Shown here in pieces: positions 2,857 to 33,000 of a stretch of DNA of 64,000 bases. The stretch covers positions 32,001 to 96,000 of the IMG/VR virus record IMGVR_UViG_3300046777_002658. The stretch is one strand, 5' to 3'. The notes under the pieces were generated by a model. That model saw only the letters and a list, made by a program, of their open reading frames with translations, made no database searches and was not told the DNA's origin. The translations under genes and the position numbers were made by a program. How positions within the stretch are numbered: the stretch's first letter is position 1; every line of letters starts with the position of its first letter. The DNA is from a virus.

Positions 2857-4170
2857 CTAGAACGTACCGTAGTTTAGGTTTGACTGCAAGATTTGTTTAG
2901 CAAACACATCTTCAGGTTCGCACACATCTAAAATGCAAATCCAGTGGGGGTATGTAACAACTGGGAGAAAAGCATCACCCAACTGCATAGTCATACCTGT
3001 AGTGGCGGGAGGAGGAGCAATATCAGAAGAGCGCATAAATAAACCAGGAGCCCCATCAATAGCTTCTCCACTACAGTGGTAGGTATAGCCTAAGGAGGCG
3101 CTGGAGTCGTTCATAGCAGTTCTAGCAACTACAGCCACCTTGTTAACTGGCCAGAAAGTCTGAATAGTACCTGTAACAGGGTCACGGTATAGACCATCCA
3201 TGATGCGGATTCTTAAACCAGCAATAGAAGAGATGTCACCACCTGGTCCCATAGTAATAAAGGAAGCAGGAGCCGCACCAGTTCCTAAAGCAGCGTTACC
3301 AGCCACAGTAGTTGTAGGTTGGTTTAACACTAACAAGCTTGGTATACCCATCAATGACTTGATGTAGTCGTTCTGCATAATGATGGTCATCAAGTCAGAA
3401 GAAATAACCAGCTCAGTAAAGCGGTTTTTGTTGGTATTATATAACCATTGTTTAATTAACTGTAAGCAGCTTATTAAATCAGCTTTTGGGTCAGTCCATT
3501 TTACTCCTGCACGACCGTCAGTAGACTTAAATAGTAAGGCTTCTGGACGACCTTTATCATTGACCAAATTACTGGCAGCCACAAGACCAGTACCAGTAAT
3601 AGAAGCATTAGCAGCTACAGTGGCATTAAAGCCATTGTAAGAAAAGAAGTTGTGAGTGGGGATGTTTGTACTAGCATTGATACTAACGTTAGTGCGAGGG
3701 TCTTTGTAGACAATACCACCCAATAAAGCCTTAGCTCGGAAAAGATCTTTAACACGAGCATGACGATTTAACAACTGTTGAACACGTTGTTTAACAATGT
3801 CTGCTGGGTTCCAAGCCTGATTAACAGTACCAACCTTTCTTAACTGGTTGATTAAATGTTGGTCAATAAAGTCATTTTCACGAACTACCGCTGGGTGAGC
3901 CATAAAAGACTGAACCCGGTTTGGCTCCATGTATCCACCGCTGGGAACACCAAACTTAACAATAGGAGTGATACCTAAACCTTCAATGACCTGTTCTGTA
4001 ACGATTGTTCGTTCGGGGATGTTTCTGTCAGGGAAGAAATCAGTTAAAGGAGTAATCTCTAACTGTTCAAAGGATTTAGCTAACTCAGTTAGCTGTAAAC
4101 TGCCAAGTGCAGGGATATCGCCTATATACTTATACTCACTAGCACCAGCATCAAACTCTTGAAGACCCAT
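2857..4170 (-). CDS. Major capsid protein (lambda gpE / Phage_cap_E-like, HK97 fold)
   Basis: 437 aa, follows the protease. LTDFFPDR, GITPIVKFG, P..VRENDFI, QRVQQLLNRHARVKDLFRAKALLGG and C-terminal AFLPVV match gpE-family patterns. Confidence 0.75.
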   Translation of the reverse strand: MGLQEFDAGASEYKYIGDIPALGSLQLTELAKSFEQLEITPLTDFFPDRNIPERTIVTEQVIEGLGITPIVKFGVPSGGYMEPNRVQSFMAHPAVVRENDFIDQHLINQLRKVGTVNQAWNPADIVKQRVQQLLNRHARVKDLFRAKALLGGIVYKDPRTNVSINASTNIPTHNFFSYNGFNATVAANASITGTGLVAASNLVNDKGRPEALLFKSTDGRAGVKWTDPKADLISCLQLIKQWLYNTNKNRFTELVISSDLMTIIMQNDYIKSLMGIPSLLVLNQPTTTVAGNAALGTGAAPASFITMGPGGDISSIAGLRIRIMDGLYRDPVTGTIQTFWPVNKVAVVARTAMNDSSASLGYTYHCSGEAIDGAPGLFMRSSDIAPPPATTGMTMQLGDAFLPVVTYPHWICILDVCEPEDVFAKQILQSNLNYGTF

Positions 4171-9424: not shown

Positions 9425-12400
9425 ATGGAAGAAAATAGTAATTTACTAGACAACAACAATGATTATGATGATTACTCTGAGGAGCTCTACAATAATAACA
9501 CCTTAACAGAAGCTCCAACAGAGCAAGAGATAAGAGAGAACCCCTTCAGAAGTCTTATTGAATACAATATTAATCATGGCGGGGGAATTAATAAATTCTT
9601 TGACAGCTCAGACTATAACCAGTCTGACCCCTTTAAAGCCGCCGCAAACTTGAGTATTAGTTTTAACCAAAAGATGCTGGGGGTTGAAGCTAGAACTCAA
9701 AGAGAGTATTTAGAGTTTGCTGTGCAGGTACAAGCGGATAGACTGTCTTCTGCGATAGGTAGCTATGAAGCTGATATGCAGAGAGCAACAGGACATAACC
9801 TAGCTGGCGAGAGAGTAGAAACCTATAAATCTCCAAACGGCTTCCTGACTAGACCTACTCAATATGATACCTACTCCTTGTTCTCTAATCAAGAGGCTAG
9901 AGAAATGGGGCTAAGGTTGTCTATGTACCAACTACCAGAGACAAACACAGTAGTTGGTATCTCACAGCGCAGCAGAAGCAGCACAGAAATAGTAACCCAA
10001 AGCTTTTTAAACTCTGATCAATCAAGAAGAGACTTGTCCTCCACAAACTCACAAAGGTCTATGAGAGTCTTAGTGGGTAACGAGGTAGCTAGTAATATTC
10101 TTAATAGAAATGAGAATATAAATGTTTATGGTGTAGGAATGCCTCAAGGAGCTAACTTACACGCTAAGGTTGGGTATTTATATACTAATAATAGTCTTGA
10201 GACTGACTACAAAGATACTTTAAGAAACCAGAAAGCGCAAACAGCTTTTATATCTACACAAAATATTACCTCTGCCCTTCCAAAAGCTAATACCTCCGAG
10301 GAGATGTTAGTTCTTTCTAGAGGAGACATATACAGAAGCAATAACCAAAATCCGCTTACTTATAGAGACTCTATTCTTGACGAAAGAGAAGAAATTAGAA
10401 ATCGCTTAATAGATCAGTTAAAAGGTGTCACAGATGCTATAGCTAGTCTAGCTAAGTCTCAACAAAGACAGGTAGAAAAAAGCTTTAGAGAAAGTGTTAA
10501 ACAAGTTACAAAAGATAATATAACAAGCTTAGAAAGCATGAGAGCGGGTGCTAACTCCTCTGTGTTTGTAAATGAAGATATTTTAATAGAGATTAAAAAT
10601 AAAGTTAAAGATGCTGCTGAAAAAAGCAGCACTAAAAAGGTAGTTTTATCAATCCAGTATTTAGAGAATATATTTCTTGACAATAGCTCAAACTCTTCTA
10701 GCAGGTATGATAACGATGTAAGAATACCCATGCTAAACGCTCTGGAATTGTTATCAAAACAAGGTAGGTTAAGTCTTGCTACATCCAGCGTTAGTTTTGC
10801 TCCTGACCAAGGGTTGTTTAACATTTTAGATAAATTTCACTCCAATGAGATAACCGGTTATAGCAAAACAGTTTTAAAAACCCTTTTAGACAATAACTCC
10901 TTTTCAATTCTGCCTACTAGTTTTGCTCACAGTAAGACGTTTGCCATCTTTGATATGCCAGAATCTAGACCAGACTTAAATAAGCTTAAACTAGATAGTT
11001 TTGGTATAAGTTCTGCTAACTTCACCCGCAACGCTTTCGAGAATAATATTGAGACTGGTTTAATTCTTGATAGGGACAGCCTAAGAGGATTAACAGACCG
11101 AGAACAGCAAGATATAACAAACTACTATTATTATGGTGTCAGTAATTTTAATAGGCTAAGAGCTCAAGGTTCATTTGTAGAAAGTAGAGGCAATGCAGAG
11201 CAAACAGAAAAATTAATAGGTATTCTGACATCTATGGGAGGTCAGGAGTCCAGAGAAAGAGTATCCGGCTCTCCCTTTGTTTTTAGTAGACGTTATGACA
11301 TTAACAGAGGTGTTGAGCTATCTGGGTTAGATATACAAATAAGGGGTTTAGGACAGGGTGCTAAGGGTTACTCGTTCTCTGTCACTGTAGGACAGGAGTA
11401 TGGTCAGAATGGCTATGAACCGATTGTTTATCTTTCTAAAAACAATCGTGTGATCAACGGGATGATCTATAAAAATGATTCATCTCAAGCTTTACAACTT
11501 TACAACGGTGAGTACCTGGCTCCAGGAGAAACTAGACAGTTTAGTGCTTTGGAAGTAGTGGCTGGTTTAGTTGACACACTGCGCCACACAACGCTTTTTG
11601 AGGCTTCTAGAGGATCTTTACAGACAGCTATAAAATCAATGACGACTGCTACCAGACTGCAAGGTTTGAGTAGAGTTTTGGGTAACCTACTGTTTGAGCA
11701 AGCTCAGTTGAAGAACTATATGAGCTGGTTAGACAGTCAGGGTTCAGGTTTTACTGATGTAATGACAAACCTGCACCAAAGAGATGCTGGAGCCAGAGGT
11801 TGGTTAAACAATATTCTTAACGATGGGAAAGATCAGAACATAGCTACAAAAACACTAGCTTCTTTAGCAGAAAGACTTAGTATTCCTTTGAGTCAATCTA
11901 GTTTAGGAACTGAAGTAGCAAGTAGACTACCTGAACGTACAGCACAAATTCTGGATATTCTGAATAAGGAAATTGGAGGCGATCGCAGAGATGTCGCTAC
12001 AACTACTGCTGGAATGGTAAAAGCTTTAGACAGACTATTAATGAATAGTTTAGATAATAGCCAAACAGCAACTCTCTACACTGACCTCTTAAGAATGATA
12101 GTTCAGCAAGATGCTGTGGCTAATGATATATACGAAAGAAGTCAGCAGAGAGCTAAACAAGAGTTGTTTTCACAAATGACTAGTGCTTTCATGCAGCCTC
12201 ATGAGTTGAGATACTCATTTGGGCAAGCATTGTATAAAAGACCAGTTTTTAGCATTAATAATGATTTATCTAAACTAGCAAGGTCACAAAATACTCTAGG
12301 GCTGCTTCTTTCCCCTCATGGCTTGAGGCATGGTGAATCTTTGGGTGACACTTACATTAGAGCGATAGCTGATAGTGTGAGATTCACTGAAAGAGATTTA

Positions 12401-15400
12401 TACAGCAATCAAGGTGGTATTTATAAAGCAGAAGGTGGAGCAGCGACTATTCGTCATGCTGAATCAATGCTGGGAACTATGAGAGGTATAGGTATTCTCA
12501 GAAGGAGTGAGTATAGAGACAGATCTTTAGCTGCTTATATTGCTGTTGGTCTGTCTGATGAACAAGCAAGAAGGAGAACAGAAGAGCAAGAAAAAGAAGT
12601 ATTCAAATTACAAGAGTTGTCTGGTAATAGTTCAAGCAACCTGTTCTTCTTTCCTTATAGAGTCACAGAGCAAATCTCTGGACGATTAAAGAACCTACAG
12701 AGCGGTAGACCTCTAGAAGCTGCTTCTGCTAGATTTGCTACCTATGCCCATACTTTAGGAGTTGTTGGTAACGACAGTTATAGTGATTTATCTAATATGT
12801 TGTCTGGTAACATCTTTACAAGCCTACCAGAACATCAATATAAGTATCTGCAACAGTTAATTATAGACCACGGCAGTTATGAAAATGTTTTAAATTATAT
12901 TCGTACTAATATTCATGGTGATTCTTTAAGTCTAGTCAGAGGTTTACTTGGAGGATCAGCGCCTAAAAGAGTTTTACAGAGCATGGGTATCTCAACAATG
13001 TCTGACTTTGCTTATGTAAACTCAGAGTATAAGGACGCAGATAAAAACTCTTTAGAGTATGCTTACTTGCACAAAACCTCTATGAGTTTTGATACTACCC
13101 AAATTCTTAGTAACGTCGAGTTTGCTGGTAAAGTAGCCAGAACTTTAACTAAAGGTGTAACCTTCCTTGCTAAAGATACTCTTATAGATAATGTTAGTTT
13201 AAACAAACATCTGCAAGATAAGGTTCTAGAAGATATTGCAGCCATTGACTCAACTATCACTGGTAGTTTTAAAGAGCAGTTGCAAAAGTTGGATAAGGGG
13301 CAACTAAAAGATCTAGAAAAACTAGTTGCGCTGAAGTATAACACTGTCCAGTTTAAAGCCTCCAAAGGTCTGTTCTTCTTTAAGAAAGGTGTTCACTCAG
13401 CAGCAGAAGGCAGCAGCATAGAGGAAAGGCTGCATAGCAAAAGGCTGATAGGTGAGTTTCAAGAGACTAAAGGAACTTTTACTATTAATGGTTTTTACCA
13501 GTATGAAAGTATGGGCGGTCAAGAAAAGGCTGCTAAACTAATATCCTTTAAACTACCAGCTACCAGTCAAAGAATATATGGTGGTGTGACTGTTTTGCAC
13601 GAACAACCGAGAGTTTATTTTAGTGGTTCCTCTACTCTAAACCTAGAAATGGAGACCTCAACCATCGGTAGAGATAGTTCTGGTAGGAGACCAGGTAGCG
13701 ATACTAATAAAGGACCAAACTTATATCTTGCTGGAGACTTGTTTGACTTCTTAGACAAGTACAGTGGAACAAATAAAAACCTACTGCCTGACAGAGTTAA
13801 AGATCAAAAGATTTATTCAGTTATCTCCCCATCCCAGATTAAAGGTTTTAATTTTGAGCAAGGGTTGATGCTAATAGAGCAGAGACATGGTAATAGGTTT
13901 TTAGACCTAATAGAAAGTGATAGAGGTGGCAGAGCTGTCGCAGAAGGTCTAGCCTTGATGATGCTACAGTCTAAGGATAGCAATGAAGTGACCATCTCTG
14001 AGCTGCTTGGTCAAAGTTTAATTGATGAGGGTGGGGACAGAAAATCAGTAGGCTACTCTTTTCTTATGAAGCCTGGTGGAAAAGCTGTTGGTAAGAAACT
14101 ACCAGAGAAGGATAACAACCCAACAATCTCTTCTGCTTTACAAGGCAGCTTTCTTCTGTATGACCAGTTTGGATCTTTGGCTTTACCAGAGTTTTTGAAT
14201 AGTAACATGACTATAAGCCAAGCTCTCACTAAAACTGTAGCCCTAGCTCTTGGTACTGGTAATGATTCAGAGAAAGCAAGGCTGCACTTGAAGAATAGAA
14301 GTGCTGAAATCTTTAGGCAAGTTCAAAGAAAAAGTGATAAGGAATTAGGTGTTTTAGACCCTTCTAGATATATCTTCAGTGATGGGTTTGATAGTAGGTC
14401 AGCGAGCGTTCTGGCTTATCTAGTAAAAGCTGGGCAAGATTTGTTAGGTAAAGTTGATACAAATGCTAGGTTATCAGGCAACTCTATCAGTGAGGTAAAC
14501 CCTGCTTACTTTATGGGTACTGAAAATAGAAGAAGGTATCTAGGTGAAGTAGCAGGAGAAGACTCTAAAACCAGAAGAGCAATGTTAGCTTCTGTTAGAA
14601 GAGTGGCTGCTGGCTTAGGAGTACATCTACCAGCGCCAGAAGAAATTAATAATGCCAACGATGCTGAAAGAGGCATACTTGAAAGAAGACTAGAATACGG
14701 TCTTTCTCAAGTTAATGCTATGCTGCGCTTGAATAGATTCTTGGAGTTTGGTATGGAACAACTACCAAGCAAAGTATCTGTGGCAGTTGGTATGCAGAAC
14801 ATGACTAAACTAGAAGGTCAGTATGCCTTAGAACTATCTCAGCGGGAGTTAGGTTTGTTTACCAACACTTTGCAAGAGAAGCAAGATGTTTTGACCATTC
14901 AAAAGGCTGTTCTTTTACTAGGTAGTTTAATGGAAGGACATCTGCCAGACCCCTATAAAGCTTCTAAACTGTACAGTTTAAAAGTTACTAATCTTGCTTC
15001 TGCTAATGAAGAGGCAGGGTTTAGTAAAAGTTTACACTTCTCAACTAAATTCCTGAGTAACTTTAGTAGAGTAGCAGAGAAGACCTTGCCAACAGTTGTA
15101 AAAGGAAAAAGAGGATTTAGCACTCCCTTAGCGGAAGATGCTGTTCTAGCTTATATGTTTGGTGCAGATGCCACTAATGCTAACAACTTAGTAGATAAGA
15201 TGGGTTTAGTAAGAAGTCAAGTTAGCGGGATGGTGTTACCTTCAGCTCAAGATGCCGAGTTTGGTGTAGACCACAGAAGAAGATTGTTAGAGCAGACTAT
15301 CCTCAGCGAACTAAAGATTGATCCAGAGCAAAGAAAAGCAATCCAAAACGAAGTTATAGGAATTATAAAAGACTTTGAGCCTACAACTCGACTAAAGGCT

Positions 15401-18400
15401 ATTAGAGGTAGCAACCCTGGTAGACAAGACTTTATTAATAGAAACCTTAGAAACGTTATTATAGAGCGTGCAGAAAGAACTTTGCAAAAAGGTGAGAAGC
15501 TCATAGCTCCAGTCTCTTACTACGAAGACTTTTTCTACAATTTAACAAGAGGATTAGTTGATAAAGAGCCAGCAGTTTTAAAAGAGTTTTCTGACCCAGA
15601 CACACAAAAAGTTGCTACTTACCTAACAGACGACTTGCTTAGAGCAAGTGGTGTATATAAGCATTACCAAGGAGAACTAAATGAGAGAATCAGAGCTTCT
15701 CAAACAACTGGTACTGGGCTAGAGTATATCAGCTACGGTCTAGAAGTTTTGAGAAGTGTAAGCAGTAAGTTCTTGAGCGGAACTGAACCAGAGAAAAAGA
15801 AAGCTCAAAGCTTGTATGACTCTATAACCAAAACCCAAAGGTTGGTTCTGCCAGTGCTGACTGGTTATGGAATGAAAGAAGGTCGCTACGAAGTCAGCTA
15901 TGCTTCTACAAGAACTGAAAGCCCCAACCAGGGTTTGCTGTTAGGGTTAGACCTAATGCAGAAACTTTCTTTGGTATTCCAAGGTGAAAGCCACGCTGCG
16001 CTGGATACACAAGTTGCTTTGGTAAGACAACTAGACGCTACAAAAGGCATCTTACAGAAGCTTAGGTCTGGAGGAAAAGTAGAGTTAGATGACTATGAAC
16101 TAACTCAGTACCGCAGACTAGAGTTTTTAATGAGAGAATCTGTTGAAACCACTGCTCAACTGTTAAATAATCAAGAGACTATCAGACAAGCCGGGAATGA
16201 CAGACTGAAGTTATCAGGTATTAGTGCGATCGCTATGTCAAGCTTGTTATTAGCTGATGATGAAGTTGGCTTTGGCTCAAGATTTGATGAAGTGACTTCT
16301 ACAGGTGATAGATCTAAGTTTGGGTTAAGAGGGCAGATTGGTAGAATGCACAGAGAGCTTGTTAGTCGAGCTAATCAGGTGTCAAATGCTCAAAGAGAGC
16401 TTGACAATATGTCAATCCAATTAGCAAAAGAAACTGGGACTGGGATAAGTGGTAGAGAAGTAGAGCTTTTAGTAGGTACAGAGCACAGGAAGATGAGCTC
16501 TTTAATCAATGAATGGAAAGACAACCAAAGAAAACTAAAAACCGTTGAGAGGCTTGCTGCTTCAGCCAGACAAAACAGAAGTTTAACACAACGTGAAGCT
16601 CAAGAGATAGAACAACTTGGGGCTACAGATAAACAAGCGGGAAACCGTCTTGTAAAAATCAACTCCTATGTAACTAAAAAGCTTTTAAAGGCATTTGGTT
16701 TAGTCTACAGAAAAATAAGAGAAGCACCAGAAGTAGAAGGTGAAAGATATAATTTAGTCGAAGTAACCAAAACTAGACCTCTTATTATAGGAGGAGAGGT
16801 AGAGTCTTACGCTAAAGACGGCAGTAGAATTAAACGCTATAAAGAGTATGGAGACTTAGAAGTTGGCTTAAAGGATTCTAATCATATTATAGCCTTCAGT
16901 GATATTGATGAATTTGAGAAAATAGCCACAGGTAAATTAAGAAAAGAAGGTATTGCTATTGGAAAAAGAATAAAAGCTCAAGAATCTTATATACAAAAAC
17001 TAGAGACTAAACTTAGAGAAGCTCCTTTTATACTAGCTAATAAGCAAAGTGAACTTGAGTTATATTTACAAGACACAGCAACCAAACTAAACAACCTTAA
17101 GTCAGCCTTTTTAAAAGAAGAGTTAAAACCTAATCAATTAATAGCTGTTACAGACTTAAGACCATTAATATCCTCAGACAACAGAGTTGATTTCTTAGAG
17201 TTTGCTAACGAGTATATCTTGAAGCTCTTAATGTCTGATAATACTAAGGCTACCTCCAAAGAATATGAGAAAGACAGAATATTAAGAGAGAAGCTAAAAA
17301 CTATTCCTTTGTTTGAGAGGCTTTTAGCTGCAAAAAGAAGAGATGCAAAAGCCTCAGCCAGAGCAAATTTTAATCTTATTGAAGGTGTTTACTATAATGA
17401 TGCTACTAACGTTAGACAAGGTAGCCCTTCTGGGGCTTCTGTACCAGCTGATAGTGGGACAAGATTTGTTAGTATAGTTCCTGTAGAGACAGAACTGGCT
17501 GGTAGAGCCGAGGCAACAAAAACTTTTATAACTCCTGCCCAGCAGCAATCTAGTACAGTAATGCTGGTAGCTGCTTTAGGGCAACATTATACGCAATTAG
17601 GGGATAATGACGGTGACAGTTTCCAAGGTGCTGTTACTCAGTTAGCAAGCATAACAAGACTAATCCAGCAGCAGCAAGAGAAGATTCAAAAGTTAGCTGC
17701 TTCTAAGAAAGACTATTCACATGATGTTTCTTTATCTGATGAGCAGATAGAACACTTTAACAATCTTAATGAAAAAGCTGTCAGAGCAGAGTTAGCAGAG
17801 TTAGAGGTCCACAGAGATGTGTTGCTAAAAGCTTATCAAGAGAAGAAGTCTAATGCTAGTGCTAAAGCTGCTGAAGGAATGAGAAGGTTTACTGCTACCT
17901 ATACAGCAGTGCCAGAAGAAATGATGGGACCCAGCGGAGTTCTAAGAGATGAGCAACATCAACCACTAGTTAAGCAATATAGAGACACCTTAGATGGTGT
18001 TTATGGAAATACTAAACACGCTGTAGATGCTATTGGAAATTTAAATGCTGACGTGTTATCTAAATTAGAGTTAACACAATCTGGTACTGGCTTTAGGGTT
18101 GATAATCTTACTGATTTAAATTTAACACAAGAACAGCAAGATGGGGTTAGAGCCGAAATTGATTGGTATAACCAACAGTTTGGTAGAGACCATCAAGACC
18201 AACAATCCTTTAAAGAAGCTATCATCATCCAGCAAGCTACTAAAGCTAACGTTAACGCTGCTGTGAGCAACGTTAGTAACAAACAAATTCCAGCTGCTTT
18301 AGGGTCAATAGTTGATGACCAAAGACTAACAGAACTACAGTCAATTCTTGGTGCTTCTGGTTCAGGTTTGTTGGGTACTACATATAATACTGTAGTTCCT

Positions 18401-21187
18401 TTAGTAGCCCTAAAGATGGGTGAGTTGACAGCTCAACAAACTTTAAAAGGTGAGCAAGGTAGGTTCTACAGAATGTCACTGGCTGCCGGTCTTACAAAGG
18501 AAATAGCCAAGGTTGAGAAAGAATTAGTTCTTGACCGCCAAAATAAAACACTACTAGCTATAAAAAACGAACTAGAAGCAAAAAGAAATACCTACTTTTT
18601 CTCTACTGAGTCTATGGCTACCAAGCTAAGACTACAAGAAGGTAAAAAACAGGTTGAAGTGGCTATGAGATTTGTTATCACCACTCAACAGTTCTTAAGA
18701 GACGCTGGTATCAAACCCAAAGAAGATAAAAGTAGTGCTGTTAAAACTACAATCCTAGAAGAAGCTGATAACTTTACTCTGTCAGGTAGTGACTTAGAAA
18801 AGTATGGCATCAGAGTAGATGAAGGAGAAACTAGCGTCCGAGGTTTGACAAACATTTTTAATAGACTTACTGGTGAAGACGTAGCGGTAAGAAATAACAG
18901 AGAAAATATTCTAACCAGATTCTTAGGAGACAAGGTTGGTAATAATCTAGATATTTACCTTGATGGGGAAGACAGACCGGACGGAGATATATCTAATAAG
19001 CAAATTAGAGCCTTCACAGCCTTAAAACTGATGACAGAATATGTCTCTGGTAGGTTTGAAGATACCTCTTCAATGATTGCTGGAAGCGTATTTTCAGGCG
19101 TTTTAAGCTCTCTAAGAACTAATAAGAAGTATAGTAGTTTGTCGGATGACGAGTTTATACCTAAACTGATTGCTAACCTGACTAGTAGTTTTCAATCTGA
19201 GTATATTCTCAAGAACACAATAGAAATAGAAAACCAATTATCTTTTGCCAGCACAGGTAAAGAGATACTAAACTTTTATGGAATAGAAGCTGACGGAAGT
19301 TTAAACAGAACTGCCATAGATAGTATTGTTGATAAAAAGAGAGCTTCTCTTTCTGGTGAGGATAAGTACACAGGAGAAGAGTTAGACAAGTTAGAGAAGT
19401 ATTTAAAGGGCTATAGAGATGAACAACTAGACCGACAGCAGGCTATTGCAGAAGCAACAGTTAGAAAAGGGCTGACAGATGACTTCAAAATATTTGAGGC
19501 TGCTTTAGCAACCAGTATCAACAAAACACTAGAGTATGACCAGCAAAGACTAGAGAATCAAATAGTAGAACTAAAAAGTCTGCATTCTACGCTAGGTCAA
19601 ATAAGAGAAGGTGGAGTTCCAAATGACCTAGAACAAAACTTAAATCTTTATACAACTGCTTTTGCTAACCAACTAGGAGCTGGCAAGATTGACTCTACTA
19701 TGTGGTCTGGCTTCTTTGCTGAGTCGTTACCAGAAGTCGCTAGGTTAGCCAAAGAGCATGGTGACGGTTCTGAGTCATCATATAAAGCCTTCTTTTCTTT
19801 ACTGGGTCTTGAAGGCACATCTATACAGGGAGATTTAACAGATAGTAATAGTAAGGAAGTCAACAATAAAGTTTTGGCAGCAGCAGTCAGTCAAGGTATG
19901 ACACCAGCAGACAAGCTAGAGCTGGCCAAAGAGTACACAAGGTTTATGGGTGGCAATGTTGACTCTACAGCTTTACAAGTCGAGCTTGATAGCCTGGATA
20001 AAGAAGGTAGATACTTATCAAAGGATGCTGAAAGAGTATTGCTACAGCAGTCAGGTCTGTCTGTCAAAGCAGCTGAGACCTTTGCTGCTGGTATAGACAC
20101 AATTAGAAACCTCTCAGAAACAGCTTCCGCTGCTGAGTATGCTGCCAGCCAGAGTGCTTTTAACTATACTAAAGCTGACTTAAACTTACAATACACAAAT
20201 TTGATAGCTCAACAAGTAGAAACTGCTAATAATACAGACATATCACTAGAAGAGAGGGAAAGGCTAAACGTTGAGTACGAAGCTACTAAAAATCATATAG
20301 AAACTCAGATGTTACAAGCTCAACAGGCTGTCAGAACAGGTGAAGTGGTTAATAGTCTTAAAGAAAGAAGAGCAGTTTTAAATGACACCGTTAACCAACT
20401 GCAGGCATCTCTTAACCAAACTGTTGAGGCTACTATCAAAAAGTCTCAGGAGGATTATGTCACCAAAACTACTAAAGAACTGACAAGAGTTAACGCTGCT
20501 TCTGAAGCAGTTAGCATATTTACTATTCCTATTCTGTTTGCTCTAATGCAAGGTAAGTCATCAGCTTCAGAGCAGGTTATACAAGGGGTAACAGATACTG
20601 CTCAAGCTTACCTTGGCTCTAGTTTTGCTCCTGGGCACAACTTAGAAAAAACAGCTGAGAAAATGAGAGAAGCCAGAATAAGAAGTAGCTTAAATATGAG
20701 CGGTAGCAGCACAGCATCCTTACTAGGAGCTACAGCTTTTGAAGCTATTTTTAACGCTAGTTCTGTTATCTCTAATAAAGCAGTACAAGCTATATCTGAT
20801 AAGATCGGTGGTTTTGCTGCTACACCAGGAGGTAGATTTGCTGGAGAGTTGATTGGTGGTGTCTTGGGCATAAGTTTAGCTGGTCTTGTTACTAACAGAA
20901 AAGCTGGTCTACCAGGAGAAAAAACAACAGAGCAAGATGTTGCTGACAGAATTATTGAAGGTATTAAGCAGTCAGCTCAAGCTGCTTCTGCTAGATACAG
21001 TGAAATGATTATTGCTAAAGCAAGTGTTGAAGTGGAGGGAGAGGATAATGCTAGTGTTGAAAGTCATTTAATAACGTCAGATTATCGAGAGGATGGTCAC
21101 TTATCTATTATGGAGAAAGACGAGCTTACTGGAGTAACTGCTAGAACTTATGAAGGTGACCAAATACAAACTTGGATGGAGGGCTAA
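9425..21187 (+). CDS. Giant 3920-aa virion protein: putative tape measure protein fused to a PLD-family domain and a single-chain two-barrel RNA polymerase
   Basis: HAK (10160) and HSK...SSANFT..N.E (10928-11060) PLD half-sites; RRPGSDTNKG (13685-13714); SGISAIAMSSLLLADDEVGF (16214-16273); DNDGD (17603-17617); helical C-terminus with hydrophobic segments; flanked by chaperones and baseplate-like genes. Confidence 0.65.
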   Translation: MEENSNLLDNNNDYDDYSEELYNNNTLTEAPTEQEIRENPFRSLIEYNINHGGGINKFFDSSDYNQSDPFKAAANLSISFNQKMLGVEARTQREYLEFAVQVQADRLSSAIGSYEADMQRATGHNLAGERVETYKSPNGFLTRPTQYDTYSLFSNQEAREMGLRLSMYQLPETNTVVGISQRSRSSTEIVTQSFLNSDQSRRDLSSTNSQRSMRVLVGNEVASNILNRNENINVYGVGMPQGANLHAKVGYLYTNNSLETDYKDTLRNQKAQTAFISTQNITSALPKANTSEEMLVLSRGDIYRSNNQNPLTYRDSILDEREEIRNRLIDQLKGVTDAIASLAKSQQRQVEKSFRESVKQVTKDNITSLESMRAGANSSVFVNEDILIEIKNKVKDAAEKSSTKKVVLSIQYLENIFLDNSSNSSSRYDNDVRIPMLNALELLSKQGRLSLATSSVSFAPDQGLFNILDKFHSNEITGYSKTVLKTLLDNNSFSILPTSFAHSKTFAIFDMPESRPDLNKLKLDSFGISSANFTRNAFENNIETGLILDRDSLRGLTDREQQDITNYYYYGVSNFNRLRAQGSFVESRGNAEQTEKLIGILTSMGGQESRERVSGSPFVFSRRYDINRGVELSGLDIQIRGLGQGAKGYSFSVTVGQEYGQNGYEPIVYLSKNNRVINGMIYKNDSSQALQLYNGEYLAPGETRQFSALEVVAGLVDTLRHTTLFEASRGSLQTAIKSMTTATRLQGLSRVLGNLLFEQAQLKNYMSWLDSQGSGFTDVMTNLHQRDAGARGWLNNILNDGKDQNIATKTLASLAERLSIPLSQSSLGTEVASRLPERTAQILDILNKEIGGDRRDVATTTAGMVKALDRLLMNSLDNSQTATLYTDLLRMIVQQDAVANDIYERSQQRAKQELFSQMTSAFMQPHELRYSFGQALYKRPVFSINNDLSKLARSQNTLGLLLSPHGLRHGESLGDTYIRAIADSVRFTERDLYSNQGGIYKAEGGAATIRHAESMLGTMRGIGILRRSEYRDRSLAAYIAVGLSDEQARRRTEEQEKEVFKLQELSGNSSSNLFFFPYRVTEQISGRLKNLQSGRPLEAASARFATYAHTLGVVGNDSYSDLSNMLSGNIFTSLPEHQYKYLQQLIIDHGSYENVLNYIRTNIHGDSLSLVRGLLGGSAPKRVLQSMGISTMSDFAYVNSEYKDADKNSLEYAYLHKTSMSFDTTQILSNVEFAGKVARTLTKGVTFLAKDTLIDNVSLNKHLQDKVLEDIAAIDSTITGSFKEQLQKLDKGQLKDLEKLVALKYNTVQFKASKGLFFFKKGVHSAAEGSSIEERLHSKRLIGEFQETKGTFTINGFYQYESMGGQEKAAKLISFKLPATSQRIYGGVTVLHEQPRVYFSGSSTLNLEMETSTIGRDSSGRRPGSDTNKGPNLYLAGDLFDFLDKYSGTNKNLLPDRVKDQKIYSVISPSQIKGFNFEQGLMLIEQRHGNRFLDLIESDRGGRAVAEGLALMMLQSKDSNEVTISELLGQSLIDEGGDRKSVGYSFLMKPGGKAVGKKLPEKDNNPTISSALQGSFLLYDQFGSLALPEFLNSNMTISQALTKTVALALGTGNDSEKARLHLKNRSAEIFRQVQRKSDKELGVLDPSRYIFSDGFDSRSASVLAYLVKAGQDLLGKVDTNARLSGNSISEVNPAYFMGTENRRRYLGEVAGEDSKTRRAMLASVRRVAAGLGVHLPAPEEINNANDAERGILERRLEYGLSQVNAMLRLNRFLEFGMEQLPSKVSVAVGMQNMTKLEGQYALELSQRELGLFTNTLQEKQDVLTIQKAVLLLGSLMEGHLPDPYKASKLYSLKVTNLASANEEAGFSKSLHFSTKFLSNFSRVAEKTLPTVVKGKRGFSTPLAEDAVLAYMFGADATNANNLVDKMGLVRSQVSGMVLPSAQDAEFGVDHRRRLLEQTILSELKIDPEQRKAIQNEVIGIIKDFEPTTRLKAIRGSNPGRQDFINRNLRNVIIERAERTLQKGEKLIAPVSYYEDFFYNLTRGLVDKEPAVLKEFSDPDTQKVATYLTDDLLRASGVYKHYQGELNERIRASQTTGTGLEYISYGLEVLRSVSSKFLSGTEPEKKKAQSLYDSITKTQRLVLPVLTGYGMKEGRYEVSYASTRTESPNQGLLLGLDLMQKLSLVFQGESHAALDTQVALVRQLDATKGILQKLRSGGKVELDDYELTQYRRLEFLMRESVETTAQLLNNQETIRQAGNDRLKLSGISAIAMSSLLLADDEVGFGSRFDEVTSTGDRSKFGLRGQIGRMHRELVSRANQVSNAQRELDNMSIQLAKETGTGISGREVELLVGTEHRKMSSLINEWKDNQRKLKTVERLAASARQNRSLTQREAQEIEQLGATDKQAGNRLVKINSYVTKKLLKAFGLVYRKIREAPEVEGERYNLVEVTKTRPLIIGGEVESYAKDGSRIKRYKEYGDLEVGLKDSNHIIAFSDIDEFEKIATGKLRKEGIAIGKRIKAQESYIQKLETKLREAPFILANKQSELELYLQDTATKLNNLKSAFLKEELKPNQLIAVTDLRPLISSDNRVDFLEFANEYILKLLMSDNTKATSKEYEKDRILREKLKTIPLFERLLAAKRRDAKASARANFNLIEGVYYNDATNVRQGSPSGASVPADSGTRFVSIVPVETELAGRAEATKTFITPAQQQSSTVMLVAALGQHYTQLGDNDGDSFQGAVTQLASITRLIQQQQEKIQKLAASKKDYSHDVSLSDEQIEHFNNLNEKAVRAELAELEVHRDVLLKAYQEKKSNASAKAAEGMRRFTATYTAVPEEMMGPSGVLRDEQHQPLVKQYRDTLDGVYGNTKHAVDAIGNLNADVLSKLELTQSGTGFRVDNLTDLNLTQEQQDGVRAEIDWYNQQFGRDHQDQQSFKEAIIIQQATKANVNAAVSNVSNKQIPAALGSIVDDQRLTELQSILGASGSGLLGTTYNTVVPLVALKMGELTAQQTLKGEQGRFYRMSLAAGLTKEIAKVEKELVLDRQNKTLLAIKNELEAKRNTYFFSTESMATKLRLQEGKKQVEVAMRFVITTQQFLRDAGIKPKEDKSSAVKTTILEEADNFTLSGSDLEKYGIRVDEGETSVRGLTNIFNRLTGEDVAVRNNRENILTRFLGDKVGNNLDIYLDGEDRPDGDISNKQIRAFTALKLMTEYVSGRFEDTSSMIAGSVFSGVLSSLRTNKKYSSLSDDEFIPKLIANLTSSFQSEYILKNTIEIENQLSFASTGKEILNFYGIEADGSLNRTAIDSIVDKKRASLSGEDKYTGEELDKLEKYLKGYRDEQLDRQQAIAEATVRKGLTDDFKIFEAALATSINKTLEYDQQRLENQIVELKSLHSTLGQIREGGVPNDLEQNLNLYTTAFANQLGAGKIDSTMWSGFFAESLPEVARLAKEHGDGSESSYKAFFSLLGLEGTSIQGDLTDSNSKEVNNKVLAAAVSQGMTPADKLELAKEYTRFMGGNVDSTALQVELDSLDKEGRYLSKDAERVLLQQSGLSVKAAETFAAGIDTIRNLSETASAAEYAASQSAFNYTKADLNLQYTNLIAQQVETANNTDISLEERERLNVEYEATKNHIETQMLQAQQAVRTGEVVNSLKERRAVLNDTVNQLQASLNQTVEATIKKSQEDYVTKTTKELTRVNAASEAVSIFTIPILFALMQGKSSASEQVIQGVTDTAQAYLGSSFAPGHNLEKTAEKMREARIRSSLNMSGSSTASLLGATAFEAIFNASSVISNKAVQAISDKIGGFAATPGGRFAGELIGGVLGISLAGLVTNRKAGLPGEKTTEQDVADRIIEGIKQSAQAASARYSEMIIAKASVEVEGEDNASVESHLITSDYREDGHLSIMEKDELTGVTARTYEGDQIQTWMEG

Positions 21188-21711
21188 AGATGACTAGCGG
21201 GTCATTTGTGGAAAGTAACAGGTATAAAAAGATTTTAGCTCTAACAAGCAAGGCTAATTACTATGTTCTAGGATTTGGAAGATATACACCTTGGACTTTA
21301 GACTTAACGCCTCCTGTTGTATCAGGAGTAGAAACTAGCGTAGACGAATTATTTGGTTTTATTAGAGTTATACAAATTACTGGTGTTGCTAAAACAACTC
21401 AACAGCTATCTGATTTTAGTGTGAATGGTGATTATTATAAAAAATTACCAAATACTGTACAAGATTTATCTACTGCTAAGTGTAAAGAACTATGCTTTGA
21501 AGGAACTCTGACTCATTCTGAAATAACTCAACCTAGCTGGAGGTCATTGAGCTTACATGAGTCACCTACAGCTCTCACACTTACAGGATTTATTACTGCT
21601 ACTTTAGCAGGCTTATCTTTAACTTACCTAGCACACTTTAGACCTAGAACTAAAGAGAGTGGTGCAATAGAGACTATCCGATTGATACTTCCTATTGATG
21701 GAGGGCTGTAA
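21172..21711 (+). CDS. Putative baseplate wedge-like protein; probable start ATG 21190
   Basis: YYVLGFGRYTPW...PP resembles the N-terminal motif of T4 gp8-like wedge proteins; follows the giant tail gene. Confidence 0.45.
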   Translation: MDGGLKMTSGSFVESNRYKKILALTSKANYYVLGFGRYTPWTLDLTPPVVSGVETSVDELFGFIRVIQITGVAKTTQQLSDFSVNGDYYKKLPNTVQDLSTAKCKELCFEGTLTHSEITQPSWRSLSLHESPTALTLTGFITATLAGLSLTYLAHFRPRTKESGAIETIRLILPIDGGL

Positions 21712-24443: not shown

Positions 24444-24746
24444 TTAACCTACTAAAACGTTAGCTGCACCTGGTCCTCTTGTAGCTCCAGTACAATGATT
24501 GCGATCGCCTACTCTATGAGCAGGTGAACCCTGGATTAAAACTTTAGAAGAGCCTGTAGTTAAAAAGCAAGGTCCACCGCAGAAAGCTAGGTCTCCAACT
24601 GTAGCAGGAGGTCTCCCAGCGACTAAAACCAGAGAAGCCTTACAGGAAGATATAAAACCACCAGGTACGTATGGTCCTCTTTTAGGATGAGGACAAACAG
24701 TAGTGTTAGGACAGCCAATTCCGTCAAACAGCAAAGCTTGAAACAT
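24444..24746 (-). CDS. PAAR-domain tail spike tip protein
   Basis: 100 aa; VLVAGRPPATVGD and VLIQGSPAHRVGD PAAR repeats plus Cys/His ligands. Confidence 0.85.
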   Translation of the reverse strand: MFQALLFDGIGCPNTTVCPHPKRGPYVPGGFISSCKASLVLVAGRPPATVGDLAFCGGPCFLTTGSSKVLIQGSPAHRVGDRNHCTGATRGPGAANVLVG

Positions 24747-28795: not shown

Positions 28796-29902
28796 ATGAT
28801 TGATTATAGCATTGTTTCCCGGCATCCGGTGTTTGGTTTTCCTGATAACCAAGATATTTGGAAACAGACAGATAAGCTGCACACACGTCGTCCTAAATCC
28901 TGGTTACGCTATAAGTGGGTGAAGGATAAAGTTGCTCTAGTTTGTCAAAGGTTAGGGTTGCCAGCGGAAGACGTAATGATTTCTAGACCTCCTAACTACT
29001 TCTTTAGTCCTCACATTGCTTACCTCTACGTGGGTTGGCTTCTTGGAGAAGATGAAGCAGTAAGATTCTACAAACATTATCTGATCACACCAGCAGAGCC
29101 AGAGTACAGAGAGTTTAACAAAGATAGGTCTTTAGCAGCAAGCTCCAGCAATCTAAAAAGATATGCGACACCCGAGATATTAAGCTTAGTACCCAATAGT
29201 TTTGAGGGGATTAGTTTCCAGACTTATGGTACTGCTGAAAAACCTTTTTGGTATGCAGATGATGTAGCAAGAGCTTTAGGTCTTACACATCAAAGAGATA
29301 TGTTGAGGTATTTAGAGGAGGATGAAAAGGGGACGGTTTTAACCCACACCCCTGGGGGACCTCAGCAAAAGACCATCGTGTATGAGCCTGGTCTTTACAC
29401 TTGTATATTAAGAGCTAGAGCAGCTACTACTAAAGGAACTCTAGCCTACAAGTTTAGAAGATGGGTGACTCACGAAGTGTTACCTTCTATAAGGATGTAT
29501 GGTTCTTACAGAAATAACATAAGAAAGAATTACATAGACGTAAACAATTTGTTTGCTAACTCACCTTCTCACCCAAATGCTCTTTTATTACATGATTTAG
29601 CTAGTAAGATACAAGCAGATGACAAGGAGGGGCTGCAGGCTTTGTTTGAACTGGCTAAGAGGTTAATGCCCGGTAATGATGAGTTGTTTGATAGTATGCT
29701 ACCTAAAGTAAGACAAGCAAAAAACCCTACAAGAGTAGGAGAAGCAATAACTTGGGAAGGAAGAACACAGACTATACCAGAATGGGCTAGAGAAATGGGT
29801 ATGACAGACTGTAACCTCAGAATACGAATTAGAAACTGGGGTTTGGAGAGAGCTATGTCAACACCTAAAGAAGAGAGGTTTGACAGAACAAAAGCAAGTT
29901 AA
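28796..29902 (+). CDS. BRO-N (antirepressor-like) DNA-binding protein with KilA-N-like N-terminus
   Basis: PFWYADDVARALGL...EPGLYTCILRAR...FRRWVTHEVLPSIR is BRO-N; FSPHIAYLYVGWL resembles KilA-N; C-terminal WEGRTQTIPEWAREMG is a small helical DNA-binding motif. Confidence 0.75.
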   Translation: MIDYSIVSRHPVFGFPDNQDIWKQTDKLHTRRPKSWLRYKWVKDKVALVCQRLGLPAEDVMISRPPNYFFSPHIAYLYVGWLLGEDEAVRFYKHYLITPAEPEYREFNKDRSLAASSSNLKRYATPEILSLVPNSFEGISFQTYGTAEKPFWYADDVARALGLTHQRDMLRYLEEDEKGTVLTHTPGGPQQKTIVYEPGLYTCILRARAATTKGTLAYKFRRWVTHEVLPSIRMYGSYRNNIRKNYIDVNNLFANSPSHPNALLLHDLASKIQADDKEGLQALFELAKRLMPGNDELFDSMLPKVRQAKNPTRVGEAITWEGRTQTIPEWAREMGMTDCNLRIRIRNWGLERAMSTPKEERFDRTKAS

Positions 29903-30069: not shown

Positions 30070-33000
30070 ATGGCTTATCGACAACAACAAACCCTAGTTT
30101 GTTCAGCTAAGGCAGAGGTTCGCCAGAATCAACCCAGCCATAGCGCCGTTGATACAGCCGCGCCTTCTGGTCAAACTAACTGTTCGGGTAACGAAAACAA
30201 TTCTTCAAAGGTTTTAACCATGTCTTATTCCATGTCCGCTTTGTTACTTTCGTTGTCTATTGTCGTTAAAAGCGTAAAGAAGGTCGCTCCTTCTATGTCT
30301 ATGAGAAATAAAGTAGCAAGAGCCTCCAGGAAGGCTCAACAACGTTTGGCACGAGCCAAGCGCCAAGCCAGACAAGTCAAGAATGGCTGGCTGCGCTCCT
30401 CAGCGTATCAGAAGCTGTGTAGAGAGGCTGATCACGCCTCTCGTATCAGCTGCATCACTCCACCCGCCAGTAGTGCTGGTAAAGCTGGTTCATCCAGCAG
30501 ACCTATTGTTAAATACTCCCGCCTATCAGATGGCGAAGGGGTATATGCCTTGACCCCAGCAATCCGAGTGCACAGAACCTTTGTGGCGCCGGTCACACGC
30601 AGGGAACGACACCTTGCAGCTAGAGAGCAGCTTAAGGCTGCGGGACTGCTGCCTAACCAAGCCCCTGCTCTAGGCAAAGCTCTCAAGGAGCAACGTAAGG
30701 CTAAAGCCAAAGTTAAGTCCTTAACCTTTAGTCCCGTCGCACGTCCACGGGATATAGAAAAAGCTGCCCAGCAGCTAGAGAAAGCTGCTGCCAAAGCAGC
30801 AAGGCTTTCTGAAGTGGTTAAGGTTGCTGGGCACGCAGTAAGCAAGAAAAAAGAACAGAGAGAGGAAATCTTTGTTCAGAAAGTTGAGGCAGTAACCGCC
30901 CCTCCAACTCTCTTAAAACTGGCCGCAAGATGCCAACGGCTAAGACAGAGATATTACAAAAGTCAAGACGAGCAAGACTACAAAGTCTGGCAAGAAGCAG
31001 AGGAAGATTATGCCTTTCTCTGCAAGAAAAAAGAACAGAGAGAGGAAATCTTTGTTCAAGAGGTTGTCACTCCAGATGACTTCCTAGCGCAGTTGGAGTT
31101 CTTAAGAACTCAGCTAGACCAAAATATGGCGCCTCCTGTTGTGCCACAAGAGTTTGCTACTGCAGCAGCAGAGATTGTGGATGACTACAAAGCCCAGGCA
31201 GAAGCCACAGGCACAAAGGATATGACCATGCTTATGTCCCTTTCATCCCCCATCAAAAACTCTGCTGGAGAGGATGTACAGGTTATAACCATTACAGGTA
31301 ACTGGAGTGGCAACGAGATTGACCCACAACTAAAAGCAGCCAGTAAAGATGTGATGGTGAACTTAGTGGGCAAGAACAAACTGCAAAAAGCAGAGTTCAC
31401 AAAACGAGGCTTTGTTCTTGTTACACAAGAGTGGTATTGTTTACCACTAGAGCAAAATAAACAACTAATTAAGGAAACACCAGTGAGACCACCAATTGTT
31501 TCCAGAACCAGCTCAAACCCACCAAAGCTGGTTAAAACAGACAGGGCTGATGGTGTTAAGTACCTGCACCTTTACCCTAACAGTGTTACACCCAAAAACA
31601 TTAAGGAACTTCTAGCCGAGCCCAAAGAGCTAGAAGTGCTTGTTAACATTAGCTCTGAACGGCTAATAGTTGAGAACCGGGATAAGTTTGTAGAGTTTCT
31701 CAGAGCTAATGGCTTTGAGAATTACTCTACTCACGCTGACTGGTTAGTCCTGCCAGCAGGTAGAAAGTTTGCAGAAAGAGTAGTTAAAGCTGGGGTTGTT
31801 TTCTCTGAAGAAGAGGAGTCATTTAACAAACTGTGGGTAACAGTTGATGGGGTTGACTTAGTAGAAGCTACCTTAGCTCCTCGCAAACCAACAGAAAATA
31901 TGGATGATATAGAAAATGAAGAGTTGTGGAACCGATTGGGTATAGCAGAAGCTGTACGCCAAGCAGTTGCTACAGCTCTTTCTGATTATCTGTATGCTGA
32001 TGTTTGGTTTAGCTATGACACAAGCATATCTCTGGAAGTAACTGAGCTTTTAGCAGAGTTTGGCTTTGCTTCTAAGTATGACTGCTTCTTGTTAAAACCA
32101 GCATTAAGAGAGCCAGTTAACAAGGATGTCAAATCTATGTACATCACAGTACATACAAAAACCAAAGCTGGTGTAGCTTCAGGTTCTTTCACTGTGGGTG
32201 ACACCACTATCCCAGTGGAAGTAGACCAAAAAGCTACAGAGCCAGCTAACAGACTGCTCTGTGTTAAGCAAGCAATCGCTTACGCTATTAACGCTGGGGC
32301 AAAGGCTGTTTCGGTAGAAGTCAGCCACGCTAACTATGACCTGAACAAGTTAGCTGCATGGAAAGCTGCTGGCTTTAAAGGCAAGTCTAATGTTGAGTTG
32401 CTAAAAGATATTGAGTCTCTGACTCACTACCTTTCTGTTACCTGGGTAAACCCTAAGAACAAAGCCAAAGAAGTGGCTAATACTGTAGTAAGAGAAACTG
32501 TGGCACAAGTAACAAAGGTGCAGGCTTCCGTAACCACATCCCATAAAGTAATTGGTGGAGAGGCTTATGCAGAAGAAGGCTTACTGTATTACCCTAAAAT
32601 CCTGTTTAAAGAAACCAGAGACTTACTGCTTGAAGATCTTCAAGCAGTTCTTGACAGTGGTGCTGTTGAGAAAACCAGCTTTGGTCCCTACCAGTACACC
32701 TGTTTAGGTGACTACTACTGGACATGGGAAAACAAGAAGGGTGTCTACTCTACCACTCAACCAAATGGCTCTCCTGTCGCAGCTGTACCAAAGCGGCTGA
32801 GAGAAATTGTTGAAGTCTGGTTAAATGGAGAGTTAAAAGTTTGGGAGGGTCAGTACGTAGTAGAATCTTGCCTTGTAAACTTCTACGAAGGCAAGCAGAA
32901 GCTAAACTGCCATCAAGACATCTCTGAAGAGATTGATGCTCCTATTGTCTCTTTCTCCTTTGGTGCTACTGGTCGTTTCCTCATTCGTGAGGGAGCTCGC

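Follow-up and report, generated by a model that had tools for sequence, protein, structure and literature searches.

A cysteine-free giant protein encoded in the structural module of an environmental myovirus is a candidate virion-delivered two-barrel RNA polymerase

The stretch of viral DNA analysed here (the window, 64,000 nucleotides) corresponds to bases 32001-96000 of a 196,877-bp IMG/VR genome judged 94% complete, and contains an intact open reading frame (ORF), giant gene 1 (window positions 9425-21187, plus strand, as are all of its parts given below), which encodes a protein of 3920 residues with 6 tryptophans and no cysteine. With moderate confidence, we conclude that giant 1 is a virion-carried multidomain protein, the central third of which (approximately residues 1370-3100) is probably a nucleotide polymerase with two barrels in a single chain, a DNA-dependent RNA polymerase (RNAP) being the likeliest kind. 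The observations behind this conclusion are a set of motifs, their invariance and order, a local profile similarity to the β′ subunit of cellular RNAP, the surroundings of the gene and the lack of cysteine; from these we infer the catalysis, template, virion location and timing of giant 1.

An ordered set of motifs conserved in a family of giant proteins

The original prediction had named 5 strings in giant 1 as resembling, in order, motifs of the β and β′ subunits. All 5 are present in frame in the same ORF, exactly where it had placed them: RRPGSDTNKG (residues 1421-1430, nucleotides 13685-13714), IYSVISPSQIKGFN (residues 1463-1476, nucleotides 13811-13852), SGISAIAMSSLLLADDEVGF (residues 2264-2283, nucleotides 16214-16273), RQGSP (residues 2664-2668, nucleotides 17414-17428) and LGDNDGD (residues 2725-2731, nucleotides 17597-17617). 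The last of these is the sole DxDxD of the protein and holds D2727, D2729 and D2731 (17603-17617), the predicted catalytic metal-binding triad. Based on composition, 0.043 D.DGD and 0.003 GD.DGD motifs are expected by chance in a protein of this size, so that a lone D.DGD proves little and conservation is the test.

A word-indexed search retrieved 14 homologues of 3589-4480 residues with 92-38% identity to giant 1, all of which keep the 5 motif blocks. Scans of IMG/VR and of metagenomes, the latter contributing one locus only, added further loci (L001-L008) at 24-51% identity, including relatives of 4756 and 5113 residues which still read SQIKGFNF and LGD[FY]DGDS[FY]Q; the 5 blocks are also kept in IMG/VR relatives at 24-29% identity. 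An HMMER search of 1.84 billion representatives with a profile of residues 2640-3135 yielded 72 clusters of relatives (defined at 50% identity), nearly all of them giants of 3000-5400 residues, and the homologues sharing the giant 1 neighbourhood span 3048-5389 residues. No relative was found by blastn and tblastn in 50,697 phage records, a collection in which no cultured relative was detected, and this large family appears to be undescribed.

Conservation of the aspartate triad in homologues, on which the original prediction was made to depend, is complete: each of the 76 family members with 2000 or more residues has GDxDGD at the same aligned place. The order of the blocks is likewise collinear family-wide, from block B (residues 1372-1492) through blocks A1 (2236-2292) and A2 (2660-2750) to 2 downstream blocks (2955-3000 and 3075-3105), and persists from 92% to approximately 17% identity. 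In alignments of 28 to 59 sequences, where columns are on average 10-14% identical, invariance persists at R1422, K1429, P1431, K1473, G1480, an SG, R2664 and G2666, as well as in G-D-x-D-G-D and the block QQ..RD...K.K. Because they are invariant and collinear in so diverged a family, the motifs represent its functional heart and no coincidence. As far as sequence allows a judgement, these superfamily invariants are the residues that a two-barrel active site would need, namely, R, K and K in block B and R.G together with GDxDGD in block A. In the RRPG block, the conserved pair is R1422 and K1429, with a spacing of 7 residues in giant 1 and 5 in other members, whereas the first R is not conserved, a correction to the original prediction.

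Local similarity to the β′ subunit

The block pair ending in the triad was compared with cellular RNAP using the E. coli RpoC and RpoB sequences and profiles built from 72 β′ and 71 β sequences. Block A1, IRQAGNDRLKLSGISAIAMSSLLLADDEVGFGSR (residues 2236-2292, nucleotides 16130-16300), would form the first half of a β′-like double-psi β-barrel (DPBB-A), and block A2 (residues 2660-2750, nucleotides 17402-17674), with the invariant R2664 and G2666 followed by LGDNDGDSFQ, its second half. When the family profile spanning A1 to A2 was aligned with β′ residues 293-505 in hhalign, exactly 2 local matches were obtained and these are mutually collinear: DyDGDSyQ of the family pairs with β′ DFDGDQMAVHVP (A2 alone, P 0.003), and GDRLK.SG.S.IA..S.L falls in the β′ barrel start. 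A1 alone matched β′ 323-359 with a P of 0.007, the observed score being reached by 1 of 150 column-shuffled profiles, and the best HMMER match of A1 across the whole of RpoC was to residues 339-361. Cross-controls, in which the A blocks were aligned with β and block B with β′, gave P values of 0.25-0.81 in hhalign.

In this A1 match, the block ahead of the triad, IRQ..DRLKLSGISAIAM, aligns profile-to-profile with β′ at the correct collinear position. Here, giant 1 reads IRQAGND-RLKLSGISAIAM against the β′ segment and, 15 residues on, EVGF against QCGLP. The β′ half of the original prediction has therefore gained statistical support beyond the aspartate triad (the A1 P value and shuffles), with scores that are low in absolute terms.

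The 2 halves of the β′-like barrel are separated in giant 1 by a poorly conserved stretch (residues 2293-2659, nucleotides 16301-17401), the length of which ranges from approximately 10 to 1100 residues in relatives. In one subfamily (P0060, L015 and L017), A1 and A2 are adjacent, with the halves only approximately 10 residues apart, and the unit running from QRAFGEK to GGDFDGDxY spans approximately 115 residues, as a single double-psi barrel does. Thus, the 370-residue stretch of giant 1 is a lineage-specific insertion; it sits where β′, too, has a spacer.

The candidate β-like block, connector and downstream blocks

Block B (residues 1372-1492, nucleotides 13538-13900), reading RPGxDTxKGP ... 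SQIKGFNFE, is a candidate β-like barrel (DPBB-B) with 5 invariants (R1422, K1429, P1431, K1473 and G1480), and its assignment is tentative, weaker than that of the β′-like barrel. The likening of IYSVISPSQIKGFN (SPSQIKGFN) to β DIVLNPLGVPSRMN (NPLGVPSRMN) has been dropped, as no alignment supports it and hhalign instead pairs GFNFE with β GYNFE.

Between blocks B and A1 lies a conserved, mostly helical connector (residues 1493-2235, nucleotides 13901-16129), which was predicted by AlphaFold2 (AF2) with a predicted local distance difference test (pLDDT) score of 60-88 over much of its length. Beyond the triad, 2 further blocks are conserved, GASGSGLLGTTYNTVVP (residues 2955-3000, nucleotides 18287-18424) and RFVITTQQFLRDAGIKPKE (residues 3075-3105, nucleotides 18647-18739), the second with invariant Q, Q, R, D, K and K. 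The subfamily of P0060, L015 and L017 additionally carries between the barrel blocks an insert resembling RNase H-fold/DEDD exonucleases, with FFDIET ... H.A.AD (L018:8235-8897, corresponding to residues 1490-1710 of P0060, and L015:12587-15769, with the Pfam match at residues 592-717 of the translated segment; PF13482, RNase_H_2, E 0.002-0.02, below the cut-off). Giant 1 is without such an insert, the presence of which in the subfamily fits a nucleic-acid enzyme.

Structure prediction, aimed at the 2 adjacent double-psi barrels on which the original prediction was also made to depend, was carried out for 2 relatives. The AF2 model of residues 1361-2560 of P0007 (both barrels, 12 sequences) reached a mean pLDDT of 55 and that of residues 1181-2380 of P0039 (all 5 blocks within 1200 residues, 28 sequences) a mean of 56.5, with the helical connector at 70-88 and no barrel modelled with confidence. 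The A1 segment was modelled, at low confidence, with the strand-strand-helix succession that opens a double-psi barrel. Two Foldseek searches against the PDB, together with VIA-align, returned generic helical matches only, which are uninformative rather than negative; the barrel folds of the giant 1 core are accordingly those that we infer from the motifs.

Genomic context and composition

The genome is that of a myovirus, encoding a tail sheath protein (phrog_30392, E 5e-33), a baseplate wedge protein (phrog_6, E 5e-41) and a large terminase, and the capsid protein in the window is approximately 30% identical to those of Ma-LMM01-type Microcystis and Microcoleus phages. Genes for the capsid protein, a protease and a Mu-like portal lie upstream of giant gene 1 on the opposite strand, sheath and wedge genes are located nearby, and giant gene 1 starts divergently from this portal block. 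It is followed immediately by a gene for a putative baseplate-wedge-3 tail-fibre-network component (BW3TFN; 21172-21711, plus strand; PF25691, E 1e-4, below the cut-off) and, a little beyond, by one for a PAAR-motif protein (24444-24746, minus strand; PF05488, E 2e-14). On the contigs of relatives, which reach 205 kb in length, the order portal, 2 small genes, giant, BW3TFN and PAAR is maintained out to members as far removed as P0039 and P0060, and in every relative examined the giant 1 gene is located within the structural module.

The N-terminal part of giant 1 contains a phospholipase D (PLD)-type region (residues 240-545, nucleotides 10142-11059) with 2 HxK...S/T-x-N motifs (H246/K248 and H502/K504), conserved family-wide (Pfam PLDc_2, E 0.002, below the cut-off), and one homologue has been named a PLD/cardiolipin-synthase-like enzyme by JGI; the region could be a nuclease or a phospholipase. 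Towards the C terminus there are a hydrophobic, membrane-span-like segment (residues 3689-3707, nucleotides 20489-20545) and a glycine-rich hydrophobic segment (residues 3805-3823, nucleotides 20837-20893). Across 76 members of the giant 1 family, not one of 296,463 residues is a cysteine, whereas other genes of the phage have a normal cysteine content. The same is true of gp96 of Thermus phage P23-45 (L014:17288-32296), with no cysteine in 5002 residues, and strict cysteine absence may mark proteins that travel via the tail or into the periplasm. Given its gene position, lack of cysteine and C-terminal hydrophobic segments, delivery of giant 1 from the tail is plausible.

The genome encodes 2 further giants, neither of which shows significant similarity to giant 1 in BLASTP. 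Giant gene 2 (30070-41826, plus strand) encodes 3918 residues, including 52 cysteines, with an AlkB domain (PF13532, E 2e-28), a β′-like core and a C-terminal PIF1/RecD-type helicase. Its core is more canonical than that of giant 1, comprising QNLL..GKSTIFV, SRAP and GDFDGD (residues 2489-2494) with near-cellular spacing between the latter two, and hhalign pairs its QNLLRHKFDLKSVEAGKSTIFV with the β′ segment. A homologous gene of 3903 residues follows the same module in locus L009. These features make giant 2 a good candidate for a non-virion (intracellular) polymerase or primase. An Ant-type anti-repressor domain protein (28796-29902, plus strand; phrog_130, E 4e-32) is encoded between the structural block and giant gene 2, and the GC content rises from approximately 0.39 to approximately 0.45 near 26 kb of the window. 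Giant 3 is encoded outside the window (genome positions C1:183614-196333, corresponding to L102:614-13333, minus strand); it has 4239 residues, no cysteine, approximately 12 hydrophobic segments, a Peptidase_M23 domain at residues 3737-3838 (E 1e-7, above the cut-off) and a PLDc_2 match (E 7e-5).

Proposed function and alternative explanations

We propose that giant 1 would begin with the PLD-type phosphodiesterase, followed by a β-like barrel whose basic residues would be R1422, K1429 and K1473, approximately 740 residues of helical connector and a β′-like barrel split by the 370-residue insertion and ending in a Mg-binding triad, D2727/D2729/D2731. After the triad would come the 2 conserved downstream blocks and then the C-terminal part with its 2 hydrophobic segments. 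The protein would be packed in the particle, exit with the DNA upon tail contraction and transcribe the first phage genes without the host RNAP; giant 2, with its AlkB, RNAP-like core and helicase, might take over later, as gp64 does from gp96 in P23-45.

Several results weigh against this proposal. With the whole giant 1 protein or its excised blocks as queries, no RNAP family was matched in Pfam, PHROGs or PDB-sequence searches, the only Pfam matches being sub-threshold ones to PLDc_2 and RNase_H_2. The hhalign probabilities are 4-10% in absolute terms (approximately 5% for A1) and the alignments are short, and the distance from R2664 to D2727 is 63 residues, compared to 35 in β′. In both low-confidence AF2 models, the barrel segments have pLDDT values of 30-60 and are partly helical. 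For block B, the only hhalign match to β is GFNFE/GYNFE (β residues 809-813; P 0.023, 5 columns, 7 of 150 shuffles), which breaks collinearity, because GYNFE of β precedes GRHGNKG rather than following it, and hhalign produced no alignment between RPG..KG and β GRHGNKG, which the original prediction had equated. Neither downstream block matched the bridge helix when aligned with β′ 500-1359 in hhalign. The virion location of giant 1 is deduced from gene position and composition only, and the hallmarks of a tape measure, the M23 peptidase and many hydrophobic segments, sit on giant 3, giant 1 being without a peptidase. On sequence features, giant 3 looks more tape-measure-like than giant 1, and an all-helical ruler of 3920 residues would imply an implausibly long contractile tail; for these 2 reasons, giant 1 may be ejected cargo rather than a ruler.

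Giant 1 might instead be a purely structural or penetration protein (a tape measure, internal or ejection protein) endowed with a PLD enzyme, in which GDxDGD would be a structural or regulatory metal loop binding, for example, Ca2+. Loops of the DxDGD type do bind Ca2+ in unrelated folds, the AF2 models are mostly helical without confident barrels, and neither an RNAP family nor an RNAP structure was matched by sequence. Against such a role, however, stand the invariance of GDxDGD in 76 of 76 members and the block matching the β′ barrel start (P 0.007), which precedes GDxDGD in the right order. The remaining invariants are, moreover, basic (R, K, K and R), as expected for nucleotide or nucleic-acid binding, and an exonuclease-like domain is inserted in one subfamily. 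We regard a purely structural role as unlikely.

It is equally improbable, in our assessment, that giant 1 is a genuine two-barrel polymerase with a role other than that of an injected early transcriptase, be it primase-like, RNA-dependent, a PolD-type DNA polymerase or an unpackaged intracellular enzyme. Two-barrel cores are found also in RNA-dependent RNAPs (QDE-1) and DNA polymerases (PolD) (PMC10770324; PMC9508822), our results leave room for other templates and products, and giant 3 is the protein with tape-measure-like hallmarks. Nevertheless, all relatives examined have the gene within the structural module, strict cysteine absence is common to giant 1, gp96 and the M23-bearing giant 3 but not to the replication-type giant 2, and a second RNAP-like gene, that of giant 2, would already fill the intracellular role.

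Finally, that chance put the 5 matches into a protein of such length and simple composition is scarcely credible: the motifs are short and approximately 0.04 D.DGD would be expected per such protein, but their position-specific invariance in a family diverged below 20% identity and the shuffle controls effectively refute this explanation and bear out the original contention that a chance DxDGD is unlikely.

We see about an even chance that the polymerase reading extends to the giant 1 superfamily as a whole (at least 72 clusters, 3,000-5,400 residues, cysteine-free, from contractile-tailed phages of roughly 150-220 kb with Mu-like portals), which would then be an undescribed one combining a PLD-type enzyme with an extremely divergent single-chain two-barrel RNAP and, in some members, an exonuclease, and would add to the particle-delivered cell-type RNAPs a third lineage of independent origin; in the present phage, giant 1 together with giant 2 may permit the early programme to run without the host RNAP. 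If there is such a third lineage, packing a cell-type polymerase into the particle would be a recurrent strategy of large environmental myoviruses. The sequence space of the RNAP catalytic core would be widened by a barrel tolerating insertions of 10 to 1100 residues, in an enzyme without cysteines apparently built for passage through the tail, and annotation pipelines would be helped to recognise dozens of giant ORFs that now lack annotation. Strict cysteine absence is a simple marker which itself deserves explanation.

Comparison with known polymerases

To our knowledge, experiments have demonstrated virion delivery of two-barrel RNAPs in 2 phage lineages only, the crAss-like phages and Thermus phage P23-45. 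The latter encodes gp96, in which a virion two-barrel RNAP is fused to the tape measure, and a non-virion RNAP, gp64, and according to its authors DFDGD is all that gp96 shares in sequence with RNAPs (PMC10770324). Like giant 1, gp96 is a giant (5002 residues) encoded among tail and structural genes, without cysteines and with C-terminal membrane or, in giant 1, hydrophobic segments. In gp96, DFDGD is the sole sequence clue to an RNAP; for both proteins a second, more canonical RNAP gene is located elsewhere in the genome, and the proposed logic, with an injected enzyme starting transcription and a second one continuing it, is the same. The layouts differ, however. The RNAP of gp96 occupies the N-terminal part (DFDGD at residue 779), and a true tape measure bearing a metallopeptidase comes after it, whereas giant 1 has its putative core in the middle of the chain (triad at 2727), behind a PLD-type domain and with a barrel split by a large insertion; its M23 peptidase counterpart resides on a separate giant, and the virus is a 197-kb myovirus rather than a long-tailed siphovirus. 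When the family profile was aligned with residues 1-1200 of gp96 in hhalign, DxDGD alone aligned.

The virion RNAP gp66 of phi14:2, a crAss-like phage (PDB 6VR4; bioRxiv 10.1101/2020.03.07.982082), is likewise a large, virion-packaged single-chain two-barrel enzyme recognised through its aspartate motif and encoded among structural genes. Unlike giant 1, it belongs to the podovirus-like Crassvirales, carries DFDxD in place of GDxDGD and has a different size and domain set, without the PLD region and split barrel of giant 1. The genome context of giant 1 is not that of Crassvirales but that of a myovirus, encoding a sheath, a Mu-like portal and a Ma-LMM01-type capsid, and the PDB sequence search, which includes 6VR4, gave no match to gp66. 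As no homology was detected to either gp96 or gp66, membership of giant 1 in these families was rejected.

In overall layout, giant 1 also recalls the virion RNAP of phage N4, an injected giant of approximately 3500 residues whose catalytic module occupies the middle, flanked by delivery domains at the N and C termini. The N4 enzyme has a T7-like right-hand fold and not a two-barrel one, and the analogy is thus one of layout only. Giant 1 resembles cellular RNAP locally and collinearly in the β′ barrel, at NADFDGD and in the strand region FRQ..KR...SGRSVI, but it differs in being a single chain with no similarity outside the blocks, in its longer loops, in the lack of zinc/cysteine motifs and in the ambiguity of its β-like part. 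Giant virion proteins that conceal a two-barrel RNAP are a kind already known from gp66 and gp96, within which the giant 1 family is probably new. What sets this family apart is a central core placed after a PLD-type enzyme, a barrel split by approximately 10-1100 residues, a myovirus genome of approximately 200 kb and a large, strictly cysteine-free membership.

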